Source: a virus
Lineage: Duplodnaviria > Caudoviricetes
IMG/VR virus record: IMGVR_UViG_3300029267_001596
Span: 284-64,283 of that record
Reading direction: 5' to 3' (one strand)
Length of the DNA: 64,000 nucleotides
Shown here: piece after piece, positions 1,147 through 46,941 of the stretch
Position numbering within the stretch: position 1 is the stretch's first letter
Layout: each line of letters starts with the position of its first letter
Position numbers and translations under genes: made by a program
The notes under the pieces: generated by a model
Database searches by the model: none
The model's input: only the letters and a program-made list of their open reading frames with translations
Told to the model about the DNA's origin: nothing

Positions 1147-1448
1147 GAGCGTTCTCCTCTTGGCGGCCGGCTGTTCACAATCCCCCGCACCCATCTGCGG
1201 GCGATGCGGGATGCGCCGAGGTCGGTGAAGGGCTTGCTTCTCGCTATTCGCAACTCGCGACAGCGGCCCATCCAGACGAACTCTACATAGAGCTGATACC
1301 GTGGCGTCATGCGTTCCTCCCGCCAGGTCTCGATGCGTATGAGTCCATGCCGGGTGCGGGCTGTGCCGACGCGAATCGTACGCTTGCCCACCCAGTACCA
1401 CATCGTCGCCTCGTAGACGGCCCAGTTTCCTTCTGTTCTGCGTGTCAT
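1143..1448 (-). CDS. Hypothetical protein
   Basis: ORF with GAGGA SD, coupled to neighbours. Confidence 0.55.
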   Translation of the reverse strand: MTRRTEGNWAVYEATMWYWVGKRTIRVGTARTRHGLIRIETWREERMTPRYQLYVEFVWMGRCRELRIARSKPFTDLGASRIARRWVRGIVNSRPPRGERS

Positions 1449-1459
1449 GATATTCCTCG

Positions 1460-1705
1460 TTAGCACATAATCTGAATGTCGAGATTCGCCTGCGCGGCCA
1501 AGGCCTTGAGCACGTCTTCGGCTGTAACCTCTTCCGAGAGGCGGACGGAGGGGTTGGGTGCCCCCAACACCACCGTTCCGTTCGTCCAGTTGAAGCGTAT
1601 TGTGGCGCGGCCGAGGTAGGGAAAGTCGTCACCCTCTTCTCTCCCTTGGTTGTCTGCCGCCCGCAGCAGTTCGTCGGCGTTCTCTAGGATGGCTATCTTG
1701 TACAT
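1460..1705 (-). CDS. Hypothetical protein
   Basis: MYKIAILENAD...; GGGAGAG SD. Confidence 0.55.
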   Translation of the reverse strand: MYKIAILENADELLRAADNQGREEGDDFPYLGRATIRFNWTNGTVVLGAPNPSVRLSEEVTAEDVLKALAAQANLDIQIMC

Positions 1706-2945: not shown

Positions 2946-3260
2946 TCAGCAGTTGAGTGCCCCGCGTACGACAATCACCAAGGCGTCGTCCAGCTTGCCG
3001 TCGTGCGTGTACGCCCGGACCGCCATTGTCTCAGCCAATTCACGCAACGCTTCGCTTGTTTCACGGGGGCGAATCTTTGGATCGACGATTCCCTGGAGTA
3101 GAGCCACGCCAGCGTCGTCGGCCTTGTTGCCCGTCAACGCCGCGCGTCGCTCCAGGTCTTCCAGTTCGTCAACCAAGGCTTCACCGAGTTTCGGCCCGAT
3201 CTTCTTGGCCGCCCACATAATCGCCTTGCCGCCTATCCATTCGCGTATTCTTCCGAACAT
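2946..3260 (-). CDS. Hypothetical protein
   Basis: ORF with AAGGAG SD. Confidence 0.6.
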   Translation of the reverse strand: MFGRIREWIGGKAIMWAAKKIGPKLGEALVDELEDLERRAALTGNKADDAGVALLQGIVDPKIRPRETSEALRELAETMAVRAYTHDGKLDDALVIVVRGALNC

Positions 3261-3370
3261 ACTCCAAGACTCCTTTCCTTATCTGAGTGGAGTGGCCGTT
3301 ACTGCTCTGGCGGGGCAACCGTGTGAAAGCCCGCATCGTCACAGAGGGTCACGGCCACTTGAAGCGAACG

Positions 3371-14240: not shown

Positions 14241-14354
14241 GAGCCCCAACGGGATTTGAACCCGGCAACGGATCTGGCCCACCAGACCAGGACGGTTGCC
14301 TACGTGACCTCCAGCTTTCCAGACTGGCGCTCTACCTTGCTGAGCTATGGGGCA
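14241..14354 (-). tRNA. Atypical tRNA-like element (GGA anticodon) with about 40-nt hairpin insertion; probably non-canonical
   Basis: GCCCCA-TA-GCTCAGCAAGGTAGAGC-G-CCAGT-CTGGAAA-GCTGG-AGGTC-AC[insert]GGG-TTCAAAT-CCCGT-TGGGGC; 6-bp acceptor stem, no CCA. Confidence 0.6.
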
Positions 14355-14678: not shown

Positions 14679-16193
14679 TTAGAGTGTGCCGTTACGGGAA
14701 TGACGTCGCCCCGCACATATCTCCAGAATGGCCGCCCGATCCTCGTCAGAGAGGTCCGGCCATGCTTCGATCAGGGAGCCCAGTTCGGGGTGATTTGCAG
14801 TGATTTGCAGCACCTTGCGTGCATCGACTGCGCCGCATTTTGCGCCGCCACCCTCAGCAATCAGCGTTTTGGATAGCGCCAGTGGGGGGTGTTCGTGAGC
14901 CTCCGCCTCCATTAGAGTATCCTGCAAATCGCTGCAATCCGCTGTATCTGGCTGCAAATCGCCCTTTTCGACCCCGCCAGACGATGTCACGTGCGCCACA
15001 TTGCGCCGCTTTGCGTGACTTTGCTGCGCCGGATTCTGCGCCGCGTGCGTGACATGCGCCGCATTTTGCGCCGCCTGTTCCAGTCGGTGGTTGTCTCGAA
15101 TAGCCTTCGCGAAGGCCTCGTCGGGGACCTGGAGATAATGGCGTTCTGCGATCCGCGCCGTGTTACCGATCCAGGTGGTCGCGACATGTAATGGGTACTC
15201 CGCGGCCAGCTCGGTCTCCCGGCTGGCTCGGAGGTTTTGAAACAGCCGCGGCCAGGGCTGGAGGCCCGCCCTCTTGAGGATTCGCAGCAGCTGCGTCCTG
15301 AGGTTTGCGTTGGCGTCACGATACCGGGTAATCACATACGGTATCCCCGGCTCCGCCAGCTCAAACACTTCTTCGAGATACGGCCGTACCTCTGGGAAGA
15401 TCGGAATCACTCTCGATTCCCGCCCTTCGTGGTGCTCGGTCTTCGGGCTCCTGACCGTCATCCGGGCTGAGTCCCAGGCAATATCATCCCAGGTTAACTC
15501 CAGTGGCTCGCTGGGCGTCCTGAGCCCGCCGTAACGGGCCAGGGCGAACAGGAGCCGCCACTGGGCGTCCGGGCAGTGCTCCAGGACCTTCTCGGCCTCT
15601 TCGCGGGCGACGAAGTACTGGCGTGCCTTGTTGGCGACCGATTTGGAGTCCAGATCAGCAAAGGGGTTCTCCGGTATGAGCTTCCGCTTGACCGCGACAT
15701 TAAAGAACGCCTTGGCGTTGGCCGTCCGCTTGCCGACCGTCGCAGGGCTGAGCTTGGATTCGACCAGATAGGCCCGCCAGGCCTGGGCGTCTCGTTCGCT
15801 GATACTCCGTAAGGGCTTGTCGGCCCCGAAGAACTCTCGGAGCGTCCTGCGGGTGTGAGAATAGACGAGCTGGCTGTTCGGCTTCAGATCCGTGCGGCTC
15901 TTGAGGTACTCCTCAATGAAGGCGTCCAGTGTCGCATTGGTCCGTTTCTCCACCAGTCCCACGGCCGCCAACTTATCGTAGAGCCCACCGTCAAGACCTT
16001 TGAGCCATTGAAGCGTGTCCGCCTCAATCACGCCCATCGCGCCATTGGCCGCCAGGACAAGCTGCTCGACCCTGAACTTGATCGATTCGGCCTGTCGTCG
16101 GCTGCACTTGCCCAGGCGGAGGGTCTTACGCTTACCCTCCGCTCGGAACTGAATCCTCTTCCTGCCGTTGGTGTCGTTCACGAGACTCGCCAT
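14679..16193 (-). CDS. int: Tyrosine integrase (planctomycete-type) with C-terminal extension across attP
   Basis: RYGGLRTPSE, SPKTEHH, FQNLRASRETEL, WIGN, HYLQV; N-terminal MASL..NGRKRIQF...RLGK. Confidence 0.92.
   Translation of the reverse strand: MASLVNDTNGRKRIQFRAEGKRKTLRLGKCSRRQAESIKFRVEQLVLAANGAMGVIEADTLQWLKGLDGGLYDKLAAVGLVEKRTNATLDAFIEEYLKSRTDLKPNSQLVYSHTRRTLREFFGADKPLRSISERDAQAWRAYLVESKLSPATVGKRTANAKAFFNVAVKRKLIPENPFADLDSKSVANKARQYFVAREEAEKVLEHCPDAQWRLLFALARYGGLRTPSEPLELTWDDIAWDSARMTVRSPKTEHHEGRESRVIPIFPEVRPYLEEVFELAEPGIPYVITRYRDANANLRTQLLRILKRAGLQPWPRLFQNLRASRETELAAEYPLHVATTWIGNTARIAERHYLQVPDEAFAKAIRDNHRLEQAAQNAAHVTHAAQNPAQQSHAKRRNVAHVTSSGGVEKGDLQPDTADCSDLQDTLMEAEAHEHPPLALSKTLIAEGGGAKCGAVDARKVLQITANHPELGSLIEAWPDLSDEDRAAILEICAGRRHSRNGTL
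14829..15075. mobile_element. Putative attP: core near 14891-14911 flanked by arm-type repeats
   Basis: Identical 21-mer TGCGCCGCATTTTGCGCCGCC at 14829 and 15055 plus degenerate copies near 14992 and 15025; core GTTCGTGAGCCTCCGCCTCCA resembles a tRNA-Ala/tmRNA 3' end. Confidence 0.65.
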
Positions 16194-16413
16194 CCATCGC
16201 CCCTTTCCATGCTGCATCCATGAGCCACTTGCGCAAAGAGTCTACCGGATACATCAGGATACCGCCAACCTTCAAATGTGGCACGATCCCCTGAGTGGTC
16301 CAATCAGACAGCTTGCGCTCGCTGATACTCAAGGCCTTCGCCGCTTCCGGGGCCCGCAATGACAAACATGGCACAGAGGGCCCGGAAGGCTTCTTTGGCT
16401 CTATACCAATCAT
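16132..16413 (-). CDS. xis: Excisionase-like HTH protein
   Basis: LRAPEAAKALSISERKLSDW...VPHLKVGG..MYP...LRKWL, directly upstream of int; GGAGG SD. Confidence 0.8.
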   Translation of the reverse strand: MIGIEPKKPSGPSVPCLSLRAPEAAKALSISERKLSDWTTQGIVPHLKVGGILMYPVDSLRKWLMDAAWKGAMDGESRERHQRQEEDSVPSGG

Positions 16414-16487
16414 AGATAACCTCCGTTCAAGCCCGGCGCGGTGTGCGCCGGGCAGTCTTTCACCATTTCCTCGTGTTCACTCTGCAG

Positions 16488-16499
16488 TTGTCAAAGATC
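16488..16499 (-). promoter_or_regulatory. boxA-like antitermination element
   Basis: GATCTTTGACAA, resembling rrn boxA, upstream of a GC hairpin at 16430-16455. Confidence 0.4.
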
Positions 16500-16509
16500 A
16501 CTGTTTCAA

Positions 16510-16656
16510 AGGGGATGGTGGGATTTGCACCCACACGTGCCACACAGTCGCGGGAGATAATTCCCACGGCGCTCGTGCCTCAATTGCGTGCCCGCCACCC
16601 TGTGTGATGCACAGCCGAGCTTGACCGCGTCTAACTAGTATTTCCGCCACATCCCC
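16510..16656 (-). ncRNA. tRNA-like RNA with Leu-type D-arm, no anticodon arm and about 75-nt multibranch insert
   Basis: Perfect 7-bp acceptor GGGGATG/CATCCCC, GCG...AGACGC D-arm, T-arm GTGGG-TGCAAAT-CCCAC. Confidence 0.65.
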
Positions 16657-16697
16657 ATGTTGTCTGGCCCGCTGGGGGCCTAAAGAGCTATACCCGC

Positions 16698-17456
16698 CTA
16701 TGCGGGGTTTCCTACGTAGCACTGAACCTTCTTGCTGCTGCGGTCGATTAGGACAGCTCGCTTCGATTTGAGGATTGCATCCGACAGACTGTTGTATGTC
16801 GTCACGGTCCCGTTGCCCCAGACCTTGTTCACGGTCCCGTTGTCCCGGACCTCGTTCACGGTCCCGTTGCCCCAGACCTCGTTCACGGTCCCGTTGCCCC
16901 AGACCTTGTTCACGGTCCCGTTGCCCCAGACATCGTTCACGGTCCCGTTGTCCCGGACCCTGTTCACGGTCCCGTTGTCCCAGACCTCGTTCACGGTCCC
17001 GTTGTCCCGGACCTCGTTCACGGTCCCGTTGCCCCAGACCTTGTTCACGGTCCCGTTGCCCCAGACCTTGTTCACGGTCCCGTTGTCCCGGACCTCGTTC
17101 ACGGTCCCGCACACGTAGGTTTTTGTGCTCTCTCCATTGATGGAGGCGACAACTTCGCCTTGCTTAACTACTTTGGCTTTGTACCAATCCTTCAAGGCAT
17201 GTTTCGCACGCCTCTCGCAATCCTCGGCGTCGTACCACGCCGGCAGAATATCCTGGTCGAGATGGTATTCCCATTTCCTGAGTGGGGCATTCCAATCACC
17301 GCCAGGAGGAACTACTTCGACCCTGACCAGCGACGGGTTATTCCGTGCGGTCATCTCCCTGAGCTTATTGTCCGCGATGATCTGTTCATGGGATTCGGTT
17401 CGCAGTCCCCAGAACACCTTTTGCTTGGTCAACACGAAACTGGCTGGTCTACACAT
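16698..17456 (-). CDS. Beta-solenoid repeat protein
   Basis: MCRPASF...SHEQII N-terminus, then 11 x GTVN(E/K)V(R/W)(D/G)N; GGAGAG SD. Confidence 0.8.
   Translation of the reverse strand: MCRPASFVLTKQKVFWGLRTESHEQIIADNKLREMTARNNPSLVRVEVVPPGGDWNAPLRKWEYHLDQDILPAWYDAEDCERRAKHALKDWYKAKVVKQGEVVASINGESTKTYVCGTVNEVRDNGTVNKVWGNGTVNKVWGNGTVNEVRDNGTVNEVWDNGTVNRVRDNGTVNDVWGNGTVNKVWGNGTVNEVWGNGTVNEVRDNGTVNKVWGNGTVTTYNSLSDAILKSKRAVLIDRSSKKVQCYVGNPA
16802..17108. repeat. 27-bp coding tandem repeat, about 11.4 copies
   Basis: TTCACGGTCCCGTTGYCCCRGACCTYG units, no unique spacers. Confidence 0.95.
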
Positions 17457-17460
17457 CCCT

Positions 17461-17820
17461 CTACTCTCCCATCTCTTTCTGGAATGCTTCCTCGGCGTCG
17501 AGGAGGGCCTTGAACTGCCTAAGATGTTCCCCGGAAGTGCAGTCCTCCTCATGCCCGTCCCCGGACCTGTGTTCGCACTCAAAGCACGCATTGTGCCCGT
17601 CTTCATCTTCCTCATAGATGAGGTCCACCAAGTTGGCGTACGCATCATCTAGTGCTTTCGCTAACGCCTCGTGCTGGTTGATGGCGTGGGCGGCGTAGCG
17701 GGCTTGCTGCTTATCCAAGTCAAGAAATCGATTAGGATAGACCACTTGGGCCAGCCGCCAATGGCCGAAGGCTGTGTTCAAAGGAACAGCTACAACTATG
17801 CCTTCAAACGGATTACTCAT
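17461..17820 (-). CDS. Hypothetical protein
   Basis: ORF with GAGGA SD; CFEC..H...C. Confidence 0.6.
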   Translation of the reverse strand: MSNPFEGIVVAVPLNTAFGHWRLAQVVYPNRFLDLDKQQARYAAHAINQHEALAKALDDAYANLVDLIYEEDEDGHNACFECEHRSGDGHEEDCTSGEHLRQFKALLDAEEAFQKEMGE

Positions 17821-18034
17821 TGTCCTCGGCCTCCTTCTCTGGGGGAGCAGGGAGGGGGCACCACTTGGGTATCGTCAGGCAATCTCGCACATCACGCTCG
17901 TAGTCGCCCCCTCGGCACAGTCCGTCATATCCTGGGATTGGCGATGAGACAAAATGTCCGCAGTCACAGCATCGCCCTATCCTCGCCGAGTAGACAGAGT
18001 CACGTTTCTCTGTGTATAGCTTAACCTTACTCAT
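17813..18034 (-). CDS. Small Cys-rich protein
   Basis: CCDCGHF...C...IPKWCPL motif. Confidence 0.6.
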   Translation of the reverse strand: MSKVKLYTEKRDSVYSARIGRCCDCGHFVSSPIPGYDGLCRGGDYERDVRDCLTIPKWCPLPAPPEKEAEDNE

Positions 18035-18365
18035 GCTCCACCCCCTCAAGCCATTCGGGTTCGAGAGTGTCGGCGGCTATGTGGCTTTGCTTTGCCGCCA
18101 CGAGCGAGAACACTGCATCGTTGGCGGCCGCTAAAGCCCTGGCTGCGTCTTGTCGCCAGTTCTCAGCATCTCGACGGCACTGCGCTCGATACGCCTCGAT
18201 AGCGTCTTTCCGGCTGAAACATGGGTTGTCGTCTTTGCGGATACGAGCCCGCACCCCAGTTGTCGTCAGCGGTCGGACCATGAAGAAACTCGGAGTCTCA
18301 CGCAATACCTCATACACTCGCATAGTGCCGTACCTGACTTCGTATATCCGTCGCTTGTCACTCAT
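18027..18365 (-). CDS. Hypothetical protein
   Basis: GGAGG SD; overlapping neighbours. Confidence 0.6.
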   Translation of the reverse strand: MSDKRRIYEVRYGTMRVYEVLRETPSFFMVRPLTTTGVRARIRKDDNPCFSRKDAIEAYRAQCRRDAENWRQDAARALAAANDAVFSLVAAKQSHIAADTLEPEWLEGVEHE

Positions 18366-18585
18366 GAGGCACCTCCATGGCGAGGCATTTCGGACAACAC
18401 TTCTTCATGCGATTGAATAGCCTGGGGTCTATGTGCAAGACATCGGCCTCATGGTCAGACAAGCAGAATGCAGCCCCGCATTCTTCGCACATACCAACCC
18501 CCACATCCTCCAGAGTGGTCCTTCTGAAGCGGCCTCCTTGCCCACGTGGCACGAGTCGCTTATTGCTGTGCCTATACCACCTCAT
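18358..18585 (-). CDS. Small Zn-ribbon protein (first gene after the early leader)
   Basis: MRWYRHSNK...CEECG...CPKC; GGAGGT SD. Confidence 0.6.
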   Translation of the reverse strand: MRWYRHSNKRLVPRGQGGRFRRTTLEDVGVGMCEECGAAFCLSDHEADVLHIDPRLFNRMKKCCPKCLAMEVPHE

Positions 18586-18607
18586 TTGCCACCTCCCATG
18601 CAGCCCC

Positions 18608-18728
18608 CGCCGTCCGTGGCGTAATACTGGGGTTCCACCCCGGGGGCTGCGAGTCCAAAGAAACCAACGCCTGCCGTCCGTGGCACGTGGGCCGTCCATG
18701 GCCCTGCCGTCCATATGCCATCCGTGAA
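18608..18728 (-). promoter_or_regulatory. Array of Csr/Rsm-type ANGGAN hairpins
   Basis: CGCC-ACGGAC-GGCG, TGCC-ACGGAC-GGCA, GGGCC-ATGGAC-GGCCC plus two weaker copies (ATGGAC, ACGGAT). Confidence 0.7.
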
Positions 18729-18871
18729 ATATTGAGAGGCCCGGCCGCTTTGGTGAGGGGAGAGGAAGCGAGACTCTGCGGGACCGGGCCTTGGTTTGTA
18801 AAACTGGCGCCGCAGAACGACACCAGCTTCGGAGGTATTCCGCGCCCTGTGAGGGCGTTGCGGAGGGTGTC

Positions 18872-18961
18872 AAAAGAAAAAGGACGATTGGCCGAAGTCT
18901 GGCAACTTGGCGGCACCAATCGCCCCGTGAACGGTTCTTCTGTGTGAGTCGCCAGACTTCG
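18872..18961 (-). terminator. Attenuator-like terminator/antiterminator pair
   Basis: GGGCGATTGG/CCAATCGTCC plus TTTTTCTTTT; competing 15-bp helix CGAAGTCTGGCGACT/AGTTGCCAGACTTCG. Confidence 0.6.
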
Positions 18962-19215
18962 CTTTTGCCTATCCATCCTGGATCTCCCTGTGATCAGTTC
19001 TGGGTTCTACGTCACCTTCCAAGAAATAAGGAGGGGGCGGCGGCGGGGCTCGCCCCCTGTGAACGGCGCGAGATGTGACCGCTGAGTCTACGCGCGTCGC
19101 TCGAAGATTTGGATTCGACTTGCGAAACTGATACAATGGTATTCAGCACGCCAAGGAGCGGCCGCCCGTCGAATGGATTCCCGAATGATGTATATCGTAG
19201 ACTCAGCATGACCTA

Positions 19216-19243
19216 ATTATCGGTTATCCACTGCAGAAAGCAA
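19216..19243 (-). promoter_or_regulatory. Candidate leftward sigma70-type early promoter
   Basis: TTGCTT-N16-GATAAT at the divergence point of the genome. Confidence 0.4.
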
Positions 19244-19323
19244 GAAGGAAATCGAAGGATTTCGGAGGATAACAGCAGGAAAACGAAGGGATGCTACGGT
19301 AACACTCGGTATAGGATGGGGTT

Positions 19324-19702
19324 ATGGCAACTGAACCCCACATGAAAAAAAATTGAGGCCACACACATCGAGGCTGAACTTCTGGACGCTTATGATGAGT
19401 GGGCCGATGGGCGCAAGATCAGTGCACGTGATCGTATGCGGGCATTGTTCCGCCTCTTCGTTGCTGCGCCACCGACCCTGAAGCATTTGGCGCTTGCCGG
19501 GCGTCCCGAGGAAATTGAAGCGGCCGCATTGTTCTACGCGGAAAATATCTCGCAGGACATCGTCGCGTTTGCGCAGGCTGTAGAGGCCAAGCACAAGGGC
19601 TCCTCTATGCCGGGTGATCCAGACGCCTCACGTGCTCAGGGGATTGTGCATGCCGCCGAAGCTCGATCAGCAAACACAGAACAAAACGAGGGCGGCACTT
19701 AG
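19324..19702 (+). CDS. Putative repressor (RHH-like), interrupted by an A8 tract frameshift
   Basis: MATEPHMKK(N*) then +1 frame IEATHIEAELLDAYDEWADGRKISARDRMRALFRLF...; only divergent regulator-sized gene. Confidence 0.45.
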
Positions 19703-20479: not shown

Positions 20480-21286
20480 ATGAAGCGACTTTCGATTATA
20501 CTGGCAATTGCCCTGCACTTGATTCTGGTCTGCCAATGCGCATTCGGTGACCTTGTAGGGTTTTCGTACGACGACTGGGCGCTGTATCAACTGGACATCG
20601 CGACCATGCAAAGCACCAAGATCGGAGATTTGGATATCCCGCGAGCCGCCGACCTGGCGTGCATGACCGCCGCCTCTGCGTCGTCCGCCTACATGGTCGG
20701 ACGGGAACAGGATACGCTCTATACAGTCAGCCTGGAAGATGCCTCCATGATCGCCTCAGTCTCCCTGGATCGGGATATGCTGGTCAACGGACGCGGCCTG
20801 GCCCTTTCCCCCACCGGAGTCCTTCATGGCGTCTTCGCTGGTCGGGAACTAAGGTCGATTGACCCCATCACGGGCAGCACGGCCCTGATCATGCGGTTCG
20901 ATACCTGGTCTGTTGAGTCCCTAGCGTTCTCGTCGGAAGGCGTGTTATACGTTGGACAGGATCACGGCGGTACCGGCCGTTTCTCCGCGGTAGACGTGTC
21001 AACCGGAACCCAGACTGACTTCGCACAGACGGGCGCCATCGCGGACCCCGATGCGATGGCTTATCTCGATGGCTATCTGTACGCCGCAGACTCCGTGGGA
21101 GGGATCTCGGCTGACCTGTACCGAATCGACGCCGTTAGCGGGGGCGTTGTGAATCTTGGGAACACTGGCATCACCGGACTCAACGGCATGGTGGCCATAG
21201 AGCAAATCACCACCCCCTTGCCTTCCGCCGCCCTTCTGGCCGTTCTCGGCCTGGGTGTAGCGCGATGGAGACTCAGGAGGCAATGA
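20480..21286 (+). CDS. Secreted beta-propeller protein with PEP-CTERM-like sorting signal
   Basis: Signal peptide; LY.ID..TG repeats; C-terminus TPLPSAALLAVLGLGVARWRLRRQ. Confidence 0.8.
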   Translation: MKRLSIILAIALHLILVCQCAFGDLVGFSYDDWALYQLDIATMQSTKIGDLDIPRAADLACMTAASASSAYMVGREQDTLYTVSLEDASMIASVSLDRDMLVNGRGLALSPTGVLHGVFAGRELRSIDPITGSTALIMRFDTWSVESLAFSSEGVLYVGQDHGGTGRFSAVDVSTGTQTDFAQTGAIADPDAMAYLDGYLYAADSVGGISADLYRIDAVSGGVVNLGNTGITGLNGMVAIEQITTPLPSAALLAVLGLGVARWRLRRQ

Positions 21287-46350: not shown

Positions 46351-46941
46351 TTAGCTGGTGGTGTCCACGGCGAAGGCGGTTCCGCAGGGCAGGATCATCG
46401 CCCCCGCATCGTTCTGAGCGACCACCCCAAACTTGCAGACGCTGGCGCTGTCGACCATCGTCAGCACCGCGCCGGCGGTGACACTGCCGTCGCTCGGGTG
46501 AATGCCGTCCAGTCCCGCGATCGTATCGACCGGGCAGACGCCGCCGCACCAGAACCAGGCGTAGAGGCCGTCCGTCAGGGTCGCCACGGCCACCGCGGCC
46601 AGGCCGCCGCCCTTGAGCGCCTCCCCGCCGTCGTTGGTCACTACGTAATGCTTGCCGGCGGCCGCCGCCTCGGTGGTGTCCGGGGCGCACAGGCTCTTGA
46701 TCGCAGCGGCAGCAGCGGTGCCCTTCTCGTACTTGAGCAGGATGAACGTGGCGTACCCGCCGTTGGTCTCCTGGTAGAGGCGCACCTTGGTCCCGACCGG
46801 GCACGGCGCGTCCGTAGTCGCCCCCGCCCCGTGCGCCGTCGCGTACGTCTCGGTCAGGTCCACGGGCGGCGAGATCATGGGGTGCGCGTCAGGCCAACGG
46901 TCCCAAAGAATGAATTTTCCGTCGTCCATTCCGACAGTCAT
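46351..46941 (-). CDS. Putative capsid cement/decoration protein
   Basis: PVGTKVR...YAWFW..G.C; immediately after the capsid gene. Confidence 0.65.
   Translation of the reverse strand: MTVGMDDGKFILWDRWPDAHPMISPPVDLTETYATAHGAGATTDAPCPVGTKVRLYQETNGGYATFILLKYEKGTAAAAAIKSLCAPDTTEAAAAGKHYVVTNDGGEALKGGGLAAVAVATLTDGLYAWFWCGGVCPVDTIAGLDGIHPSDGSVTAGAVLTMVDSASVCKFGVVAQNDAGAMILPCGTAFAVDTTS

Follow-up and report, generated by a model that had tools for sequence, protein, structure and literature searches.

What does a row of small GC-rich hairpins do in front of the first gene of a phage integration operon? The row, here called the array, lies at positions 18608-18727 on the minus strand of a 64,000-nucleotide (nt) stretch of Caudoviricetes DNA (positions 284 to 64,283 of IMG/VR record IMGVR_UViG_3300029267_001596). 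This whole stretch is termed the window, and all phage coordinates refer to it. A first-pass annotation had described three short, perfectly paired GC stems capped by AYGGAC hexaloops, accompanied by two weaker copies and placed just before the Shine-Dalgarno (SD) sequence of the first early gene. Our analysis bears out both the description and the placement: the array stands in the leader of the first gene, encoding a 75-residue protein, of an operon that closes with an excisionase-like gene (xis) and a tyrosine integrase gene (int). With confidence falling a little short of even, we propose that the array is a multi-site translational operator of the CsrA type in the messenger RNA (mRNA) leader of this xis-int operon.

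Each of the three hairpins fits C-ANGGAN-G, the hairpin format of CsrA/RsmE sites (8-mer CANGGANG). Hairpin A (CGCC-ACGGAC-GGCG; 18608-18621) and hairpin B (UGCC-ACGGAC-GGCA; 18672-18685) carry their hexaloops on stems of 4 base pairs (bp), and hairpin C (GGGCC-AUGGAC-GGCCC; 18689-18704) has a 5 bp stem. The GGA in these loops has predicted unpaired probabilities of 1.00, 0.91 and 0.97, respectively. Upstream of hairpin C, a stemless copy, AUAUGGACGGC (18706-18716), keeps the common 9-mer and is missing the 5′ GCC, and its GGA is mostly paired (0.29 unpaired). It is preceded by a weak site, UUCACGGAUGG (18717-18727), that matches CANGGANG and whose GGA (18723-18721) is predicted to be unpaired (0.90). 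Two more GGAs lie between hairpins A and B. One occupies the triloop of a hairpin, GGGGU-GGA-ACCCC (18629-18641; unpaired probability 1.00), that is not part of the 12-mer repeated in the three hairpins, and the other, in CUUUGGACUC (18652-18660), maintains a spacing of about 20 nt and is predicted to be partly paired.

Hairpin A and the GGA triloop hairpin are together enclosed by a perfect 9-10 bp stem, GCAGCCCCCG with CGGGGGCUGC (18600-18650), which ends 2 nt before the SD region. The end of the array is 23 nt from the ATG of the 75-residue gene (18585), and the SD, GGGAGGUGG (18597-18589; with the start codon, 18583-18597), itself contains a GGA. The SD is also spanned by a five-codon upstream open reading frame (ORF; AUG 18599; 18583-18599, minus strand) whose stop overlaps the AUG of the 75-residue gene.

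The clustering of these motifs is far beyond chance. The sequence AYGGACGGC occurs five times in the window against 2.51 expected, and four of the occurrences fall inside 18609-18714 on one strand; the fifth, at 46567, is within a coding sequence and has no stem. The 8-mer CANGGANG is found 55 times on both strands (50.9 expected), four times inside 18611-18726. When the whole window was scanned for ANGGAN hexaloops closed by at least three Watson-Crick pairs, ten such hairpins were recovered against 9.26 expected, with three of them located within 97 nt at the array. None of 200 first-order Markov simulations of the window placed three or more hairpins within 130 nt, and 12 placed two. Furthermore, the exact 12-mer GCCAYGGACGGC is confined to these three places, and the remaining 40 matches in the window all carry two mismatches, with none at zero or one.

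The exposure and spacing of the GGAs extend beyond the repeat itself. Eight GGAs, the one in the SD included, are distributed over 18723-18594, and three of these (the GGGGU-GGA-ACCCC triloop, UUUGGACUC and the SD) are outside the 12-mer. Partition-function folding of 251 nt assigns five of the eight GGAs an unpaired probability of 0.90 or more, compared with a regional mean of 0.37 and a value of 0.15 for GG[CGU] triplets. Successive GGAs are separated by 11, 15, 18, 23, 20, 21 and 19 nt (coefficient of variation 0.205), a regularity matched in about 5 of 10,000 random-placement trials. A genome-wide sliding scan for exposed GGAs (1598 windows of 160 nt) ranked the array leader tied for second; the top window, 3121-3280 on the minus strand, lost its rank on re-cutting.

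Do these repeats behave as RNA hairpins or simply as repeated DNA? The pair immediately outside the shared GCC/GGC core is C-G in hairpin A, U-A in B and G-C in C, so that it is complementary in 3/3 copies, and C has an additional G-C pair. We calculate from base composition a chance of about 0.02 for complementarity in all three. Outer pairs that vary and remain complementary favor RNA hairpins, a suggestive rather than decisive sign.

The known binding preferences of CsrA invite comparison with this arrangement. According to the passages of PMC7652899 cited here, in vitro selection of CsrA ligands (SELEX) yielded the consensus RUACARGGAUGU, and 51 of 55 ligands presented the GGA in a hairpin loop. 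Of those loops, 44 were hexaloops closed by flanking C and G, and the stems mostly had no more than four contiguous pairs. They also describe how a CsrA dimer can span two sites separated by 10-63 nt, most effectively near 18 nt; in glgC the span runs from an upstream hairpin to the SD. A distance of 19 nt separates the hairpin A GGA (18615) from the SD GGA (18596) in the phage leader, within the bridging range expected of glgC- and flagellin-type leaders.

The phage is temperate. Its host is probably a planctomycete, judging from the relatives of its integrase. Related integrases were surveyed at 4 viral loci and at 80 genome loci, the best of 356. Among those best 80, 77 belong to records whose titles name lineages that we take to be Planctomycetota. 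All five planctomycete genomes examined that hold related integrases encode a CsrA above the Pfam cut-off. In four of the five, FliW is encoded directly upstream of csrA, and flagellin genes lie directly downstream. This fliW-csrA-flagellin arrangement is of the flagellin-homeostasis type and lends no support to the carbon-status sensing that the first-pass annotation had proposed. Abundant csrA genes in Planctomycetota are described in the cited part of PMC13443453.

The likely host phylum also offers presumed targets for comparison. Three of four csrA-adjacent flagellin leaders (L116, L118 and L120) hold the SD within a CAAUC-ANGGAG-GAUUG hexaloop hairpin, and one flagellin leader adds GGUUCC-ACGGAUC-GGAACC 74 nt upstream. 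By analogy with hag and flaA, the CAAUC-ANGGAG-GAUUG hairpin is probably the phylum's own CsrA operator, and the phage hairpins share the format of these presumed CsrA targets. A separate observation concerns a planctomycete genome locus (L137, about 1430-1620, minus strand), where tandem units of about 21-24 nt contain GCC-NNNGAC-GGC with loops that include ACGGAC and AUGGAC.

A second potential partner is encoded by the phage. The first-pass annotation had credited the phage with its own divergent CsrA, and we find a CsrA-like gene at 2766-2936 on the minus strand, with a good SD and a 56-residue product that has a predicted five-strand core and is missing the C-terminal extension. The product matches the Pfam CsrA family (PF02599) below the curated cut-off, with an E value of 3e-5 over profile positions 8-45 of 53 (23 bits in a whole-record Pfam search). 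An hhalign comparison with six planctomycete CsrAs gave 87.4% probability (E 3.7e-6), with 38% identity across 48 columns. The APKE motif is retained, as is the key Arg ahead of the C-terminal helix (aligned to host R44), and the protein stops where the C-terminal helix and extension of the host proteins start. The cited passages of PMC7652899 and PMC7366521 assign FliW binding in other species to this C-terminal region of CsrA.

Structural modeling of the 56-residue protein from its single sequence gave five strands at low confidence, with a mean predicted local distance difference test (pLDDT) score of 61.5. A homodimer model scored 0.34 against 0.00 for the best control, above a mark that is passed by 21 of 30 proteins solved as pairs and by 0 of 23 solved as single chains; contacts agreed between runs to at least 95%, pLDDT was 70-71, and the interface covered residues 3-51. 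This score may reflect memory of solved CsrA dimers. Foldseek searches of the PDB with the monomer model returned nothing at E values up to 0.001, and a phmmer search of the PDB with the protein returned nothing. Neighbors in the ESM Atlas were viral clusters at 0.84-0.85, one of which is named a carbon storage regulator family, and serve as leads only; those of the 75-residue protein were uninformative. The 56-residue protein is a probable, very divergent member of the CsrA family. A 104-residue gene directly precedes and overlaps the csrA-like gene, and five GGAs fall within about 45 nt around its start (3235-3280, minus strand), an arrangement that could reflect autoregulation; this start belongs to the window that ranked first for exposed GGAs until it was re-cut.

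The first-pass annotation had likened the array to CsrB/RsmZ. This comparison holds for the C-ANGGAN-G hexaloops on 4-5 bp stems, and the multiple exposed GGAs typical of CsrB/Rsm RNAs are present as three hexaloop hairpins and one triloop hairpin. It does not hold for family membership. A scan of the whole window with Rfam gathering cut-offs returned only a tRNA-like match, and a permissive Rfam scan of 18300-19500 (E up to 10) returned nothing on the minus-strand array; Rsm families gave only one match in that interval, to RsmY at 19222-19325 of the opposite (plus) strand, with 12.2 bits where the cut-off is 57 (E 3.3). Moreover, nothing terminator-like lies between the array and the SD, and the array is contiguous with the 75-residue gene. 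Given the missing Rfam match and the missing terminator before the SD, the element is not a CsrB/Rsm small RNA; structurally, it is an mRNA leader.

These features suggest that CsrA controls an operon holding excision and integration genes. The array would serve as a binding platform for CsrA-family proteins in the 5′ leader of the early-left mRNA, which would run from the 75-residue gene to xis and int. Dimers of CsrA would bind the exposed GGA loops and link hairpin A with the SD GGA 19 nt downstream. Such bridging would block ribosome access to the 75-residue gene and thereby lower expression of the operon. The binder could be the host CsrA, the short CsrA-like protein of the phage, or both, and the leader could incidentally titrate CsrA as well.

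Several observations weigh against this proposal. The GGA of the SD, which the bridging mechanism would engage, is predicted to be paired (0.04 unpaired). The array leader is not the top-ranked window for exposed GGAs, and raw GGA density fails to single it out, since several coding windows equal it. Folding of the whole region is no better than that of shuffled sequences (z = 0.00 for 191 nt and z = -0.38 for 153 nt), so only the small hairpins carry the structural claim. Since all three are at the same time simple direct repeats of a single 12-mer, descent by duplication accounts for part of their clustering. A terminator-like long hairpin followed by the U-tract UUUUUCUUUU (18872-18979, minus strand; z = -3.06) stands about 145 nt upstream, which would leave read-through from upstream or a promoter of its own as the source of transcription across the array. 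No transcription start was located, a promoter scan gave nothing usable for the minus-strand leader, and no RNA run containing the sequence was found; four DNA runs showed zero variants, their contigs being identical or partial. The same gaps, together with the absence of any recognized repressor near the region, leave the lysis/lysogeny switch of the first-pass annotation without support.

The same caution applies to the proteins and to the host. The planctomycete host is a probable one, assigned from the integrase relatives. The Pfam score of the CsrA-like protein (24.3 bits) is below the cut-off of 27, and the protein does not have the host residues R6, H43 and E46, which are invariant in the six host CsrAs. 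An exhaustive phmmer search of 1.84 billion protein representatives found no homologue of it, and large protein searches with the 75-residue gene, the next gene (112 residues) and the CsrA-like gene likewise found none. Viral contigs searched with the 112-residue gene, the CsrA-like gene and the portal yielded no relatives beyond the window's own protein, and among 84 related-integrase loci (861 kb) none had three or more GGA-hexaloop hairpins within 200 nt, while six places had two. No relatives beyond distant integrase homologues were found, and the reading rests on one genome.

Broader scans for two copies of the motif added little. In viral contigs we found 23 loci in about nine sequence families, of which about four are coding and about five non-coding; this number of families is near chance by a rough estimate, and we draw no inference from it. 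CsrA was absent from the five viral-scan records searched, which are only 7-44% complete. Among 401 sampled Planctomycetota genomes, 13 matched in 17 rows, nine of which represent one recurring 28-mer, and at the six loci inspected all eight matches lie within long open frames.

Two features of the repeats themselves also count against RNA hairpins. The three inner pairs of the stem are the same in every copy, and the fourth copy retains its 3′ GGC without a 5′ partner. With invariant inner pairs and a partnerless fourth copy, a DNA repeat of 9-12 nt or a recent duplication fits equally well. The copies may be double-stranded DNA operators, 9-12 bp direct repeats (GCCGTCCRTGGC on the plus strand) bound by a phage protein that represses or roadblocks the early-left operon; the zinc-ribbon 75-residue protein, the HTH_17 excisionase-like protein or another repressor are candidate binders. 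Three identical or near-identical 12-mers and a fourth 9-mer copy in a single orientation would suit such a protein, as would the preservation of the fourth copy's sequence without hairpin potential and the location of the site in a regulatory gap from which the minus-strand operon and the plus-strand gene island diverge. Direct-repeat arrays bound by excisionase-type or repressor proteins do occur in other temperate phages. However, the flanking pairs differ among copies yet remain complementary, the three GGAs outside the repeat share its spacing, no copy is found near other genes or promoters in the genome, and no repressor-like helix-turn-helix protein was found beside the region. The start-to-start spacings of 15, 18 and 64 bp are not helically phased, although an unphased operator is still compatible with them. 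On balance we regard DNA operators as rather unlikely, if still deserving serious attention. A recent tandem duplication without function in a GC-rich spacer, its resemblance to CsrA sites being coincidental, would account for the near identity of the copies and for the ordinary folding energy of the region. It would leave to coincidence the position of the array exactly at the ribosome-binding region, the complementary flanks of the copies, the regular spacing that includes GGAs outside the repeat, and the presence in the same genome of a CsrA-like gene, a type of gene reported in 30/2517 phage genomes in the cited part of PMC7366521. We judge this explanation improbable.

If the hairpins do act as RNA, their ligand need not be CsrA. 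A conserved loop on a stem with variable outer pairs is the signature of a protein-recognized hairpin in general, the 75-residue protein has 8 Arg/Lys in its first 22 residues, and the same leader contains a terminator-like structure. This product, whose N terminus is arginine-rich, or another phage protein might bind the hairpins, either to repress its own translation or to act in antitermination of the N/boxB kind and carry transcription past the upstream hairpin. Yet that hairpin is upstream rather than downstream of the array, the wrong order for a nut-type site, and no second copy occurs in another operon. Four to five tandem sites are unusual for such systems. The 75-residue protein matches no family, and the loop matches the CsrA format exactly. 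Recognition by such a protein seems unlikely to us. Finally, the array could be coding sequence, with a start at ATG 18714 or 18699 and an Arg/Gly-rich N-terminal extension in which the repeats read MDG, MDG and TDG. The frame of the 75-residue gene is indeed open upstream to 18873, intervals of 15 and 18 nt keep the first three copies in frame, and the composition of the extension resembles the basic N terminus of the 75-residue protein. In contrast, the three codon positions of the extension have nearly equal GC content (0.67/0.70/0.67), unlike the gene-like pattern of the 75-residue gene (0.55/0.46/0.63), the fourth copy is out of frame, and four of six frames are open here through base composition. 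The only strong SD precedes ATG 18585, in a window where SD-like motifs precede 23 of 37 gene starts compared with 21% of random positions. We hold a coding array to be highly improbable.

Other candidates were examined and set aside. Integrase arm sites were rejected with the array 4.3 kb away from the tRNA-like attachment (att) region, origin iterons or pac sites with the replication genes and terminal repeat located elsewhere, and type III toxin-antitoxin or CRISPR-like repeats on their irregular spacing and short units.

The genetic setting of the array is as follows. The virus record comprises 64,283 bp with direct terminal repeats and is rated complete; the window covers almost all of it and has a G+C content of 60.7%. 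Most genes in the window are on the minus strand, among them those for a DnaB-like helicase, terminase, portal, structural proteins and two DNA methyltransferases. The operon opens with the orphan 75-residue gene (18358-18585, minus strand), whose product has a basic N terminus followed by CxxC...CPKC. The remainder (14679-18365, minus strand) consists of four orphan genes, making five upstream of xis on the same strand, and then the HTH_17 excisionase-like gene (xis; 16132-16413) and the tyrosine integrase gene (int; 14679-16217), which ends the operon. Between ATG 18585 and the first plus-strand gene (about 19342) is a divergent gap of about 750 nt without gene-like codon structure, and the array occupies the 3′ end of this gap as read on the minus strand.

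Other elements in and around this gap were noted. A 339-nt non-coding segment (18872-19210, minus strand) has a z score of -3.52 on the minus strand (0 of 100 shuffles) compared with -1.98 on the plus strand; in it a perfect 12-bp stem pairs 19207-19196 with 19092-19081, and it ends in the long hairpin and U-tract. It could be a phage non-coding RNA or a structured attenuator upstream of the array. On the plus strand, the purine-rich divergent leader at 19240-19320 contains a 12-nt repeat and seven GGAs (AAGGAA, AAGGAU, GAGGAU, CAGGAA, AGGGAU and UAGGAU contexts), of which three are predicted to be at least 0.84 unpaired. This leader may be a second CsrA-type element, though it is not significant alone. 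The plus-strand ATG at 19342 (19342-19357) is followed by a run of eight A residues and a stop after four codons, and one A fewer would place it in the frame of a 118-codon ORF ending at 19702; a homopolymer assembly error, slippage or a non-canonical start could explain this.

Beyond the gap, a tRNA-like element follows the integrase gene (14241-14354, minus strand; Rfam tRNA, 41.9 bits); its anticodon is GGA, and 44 nt are inserted at the variable region. It is not called by ARAGORN. This element is probably the att region. Within the operon, a 316-residue ORF (16698-17648, minus strand) contains a nine-residue unit repeated in tandem about 14 times (GNGTVNKVW or DNGTVNEVR type). Further along the plus strand, the gene at 20480-21286 encodes a DUF6923-repeat protein whose C terminus weakly resembles PEP-CTERM, and a lipoprotein-like gene precedes it; the two products are candidates for surface proteins of lysogenic conversion.

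If the array is a CsrA-type operator, it would provide a concrete, easily testable target for a phage CsrA and the first target for phage csrA genes, which the cited passages of PMC7366521 catalog without function or target. Prophage excision would also come under CsrA control in Planctomycetota, whose phages are almost unstudied, and one could then think of phages that sense or override the FliW-CsrA flagellar checkpoint. Full-text literature searching did not turn up any phage early or excision operon described as carrying an array of CsrA sites. One may go further and imagine a self-contained phage module in which a short CsrA without the FliW-responsive C-terminal region acts on a cis array of sites on the xis-int leader, timing or gating excision and early expression and reading or overriding the host flagellin/FliW-CsrA checkpoint. 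This more ambitious proposal strikes us as doubtful at best. Were it true, phage development would be tied to the flagellated versus the sessile state of the planctomycete rather than to carbon status, and the array would be the first multi-CsrA-site RNA in a lineage where the only known antagonist is a protein. Should the repeats instead be DNA operators, they would constitute an ordinary phage regulatory site.

How does the array compare with systems that are already known? In lambda-type nut/boxB sites, GC hairpins with a conserved loop are found in the leader of a first early-left gene that encodes a small basic protein. The phage array is similar in having conserved-loop GC hairpins before a first early-left gene with a small basic product, but it differs in being tandem, in occurring at a single locus, in its GGA-type loop and in having the terminator-like hairpin upstream rather than downstream, and it thus falls outside the nut/boxB pattern. 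Stoperators and Cox/Apl boxes are direct repeats in one orientation between the promoter region and the first gene in temperate phages. The phage copies, in contrast, are not helically phased, are restricted to one locus and have complementary variable flanks.

The sponge RNAs CsrB, RsmX, RsmY and RsmZ share with the array a row of GGAs in short hairpin loops at a spacing of 10-25 nt. Unlike these RNAs, the array has no Rfam match and no terminator of its own, and it runs straight into an SD and gene. The likely host phylum, moreover, uses FliW, and according to the cited passages of PMC7366521 no small RNA antagonist is on record for FliW-using species. Closer in design are the CsrA-repressed leaders of glgC and flagellin genes (hag/flaA), which combine a high-affinity GGA hairpin just upstream with a GGA inside the SD at a bridgeable distance (cited part of PMC7652899); the planctomycete flagellin leaders adjacent to csrA show ANGGAG hexaloop hairpins as well. 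The phage leader differs from these in having eight GGAs rather than two to five, three near-identical repeats and sites that are predicted, and in belonging to a xis-int phage operon. The csrA alleles counted in phage genomes, to which the cited part of PMC7366521 assigns no function, are paralleled here by a small CsrA-like gene. In comparison with those phage-borne genes, this copy is far more divergent and lacks the FliW-binding C-terminal region, and it is accompanied by a candidate cis target in the same genome.

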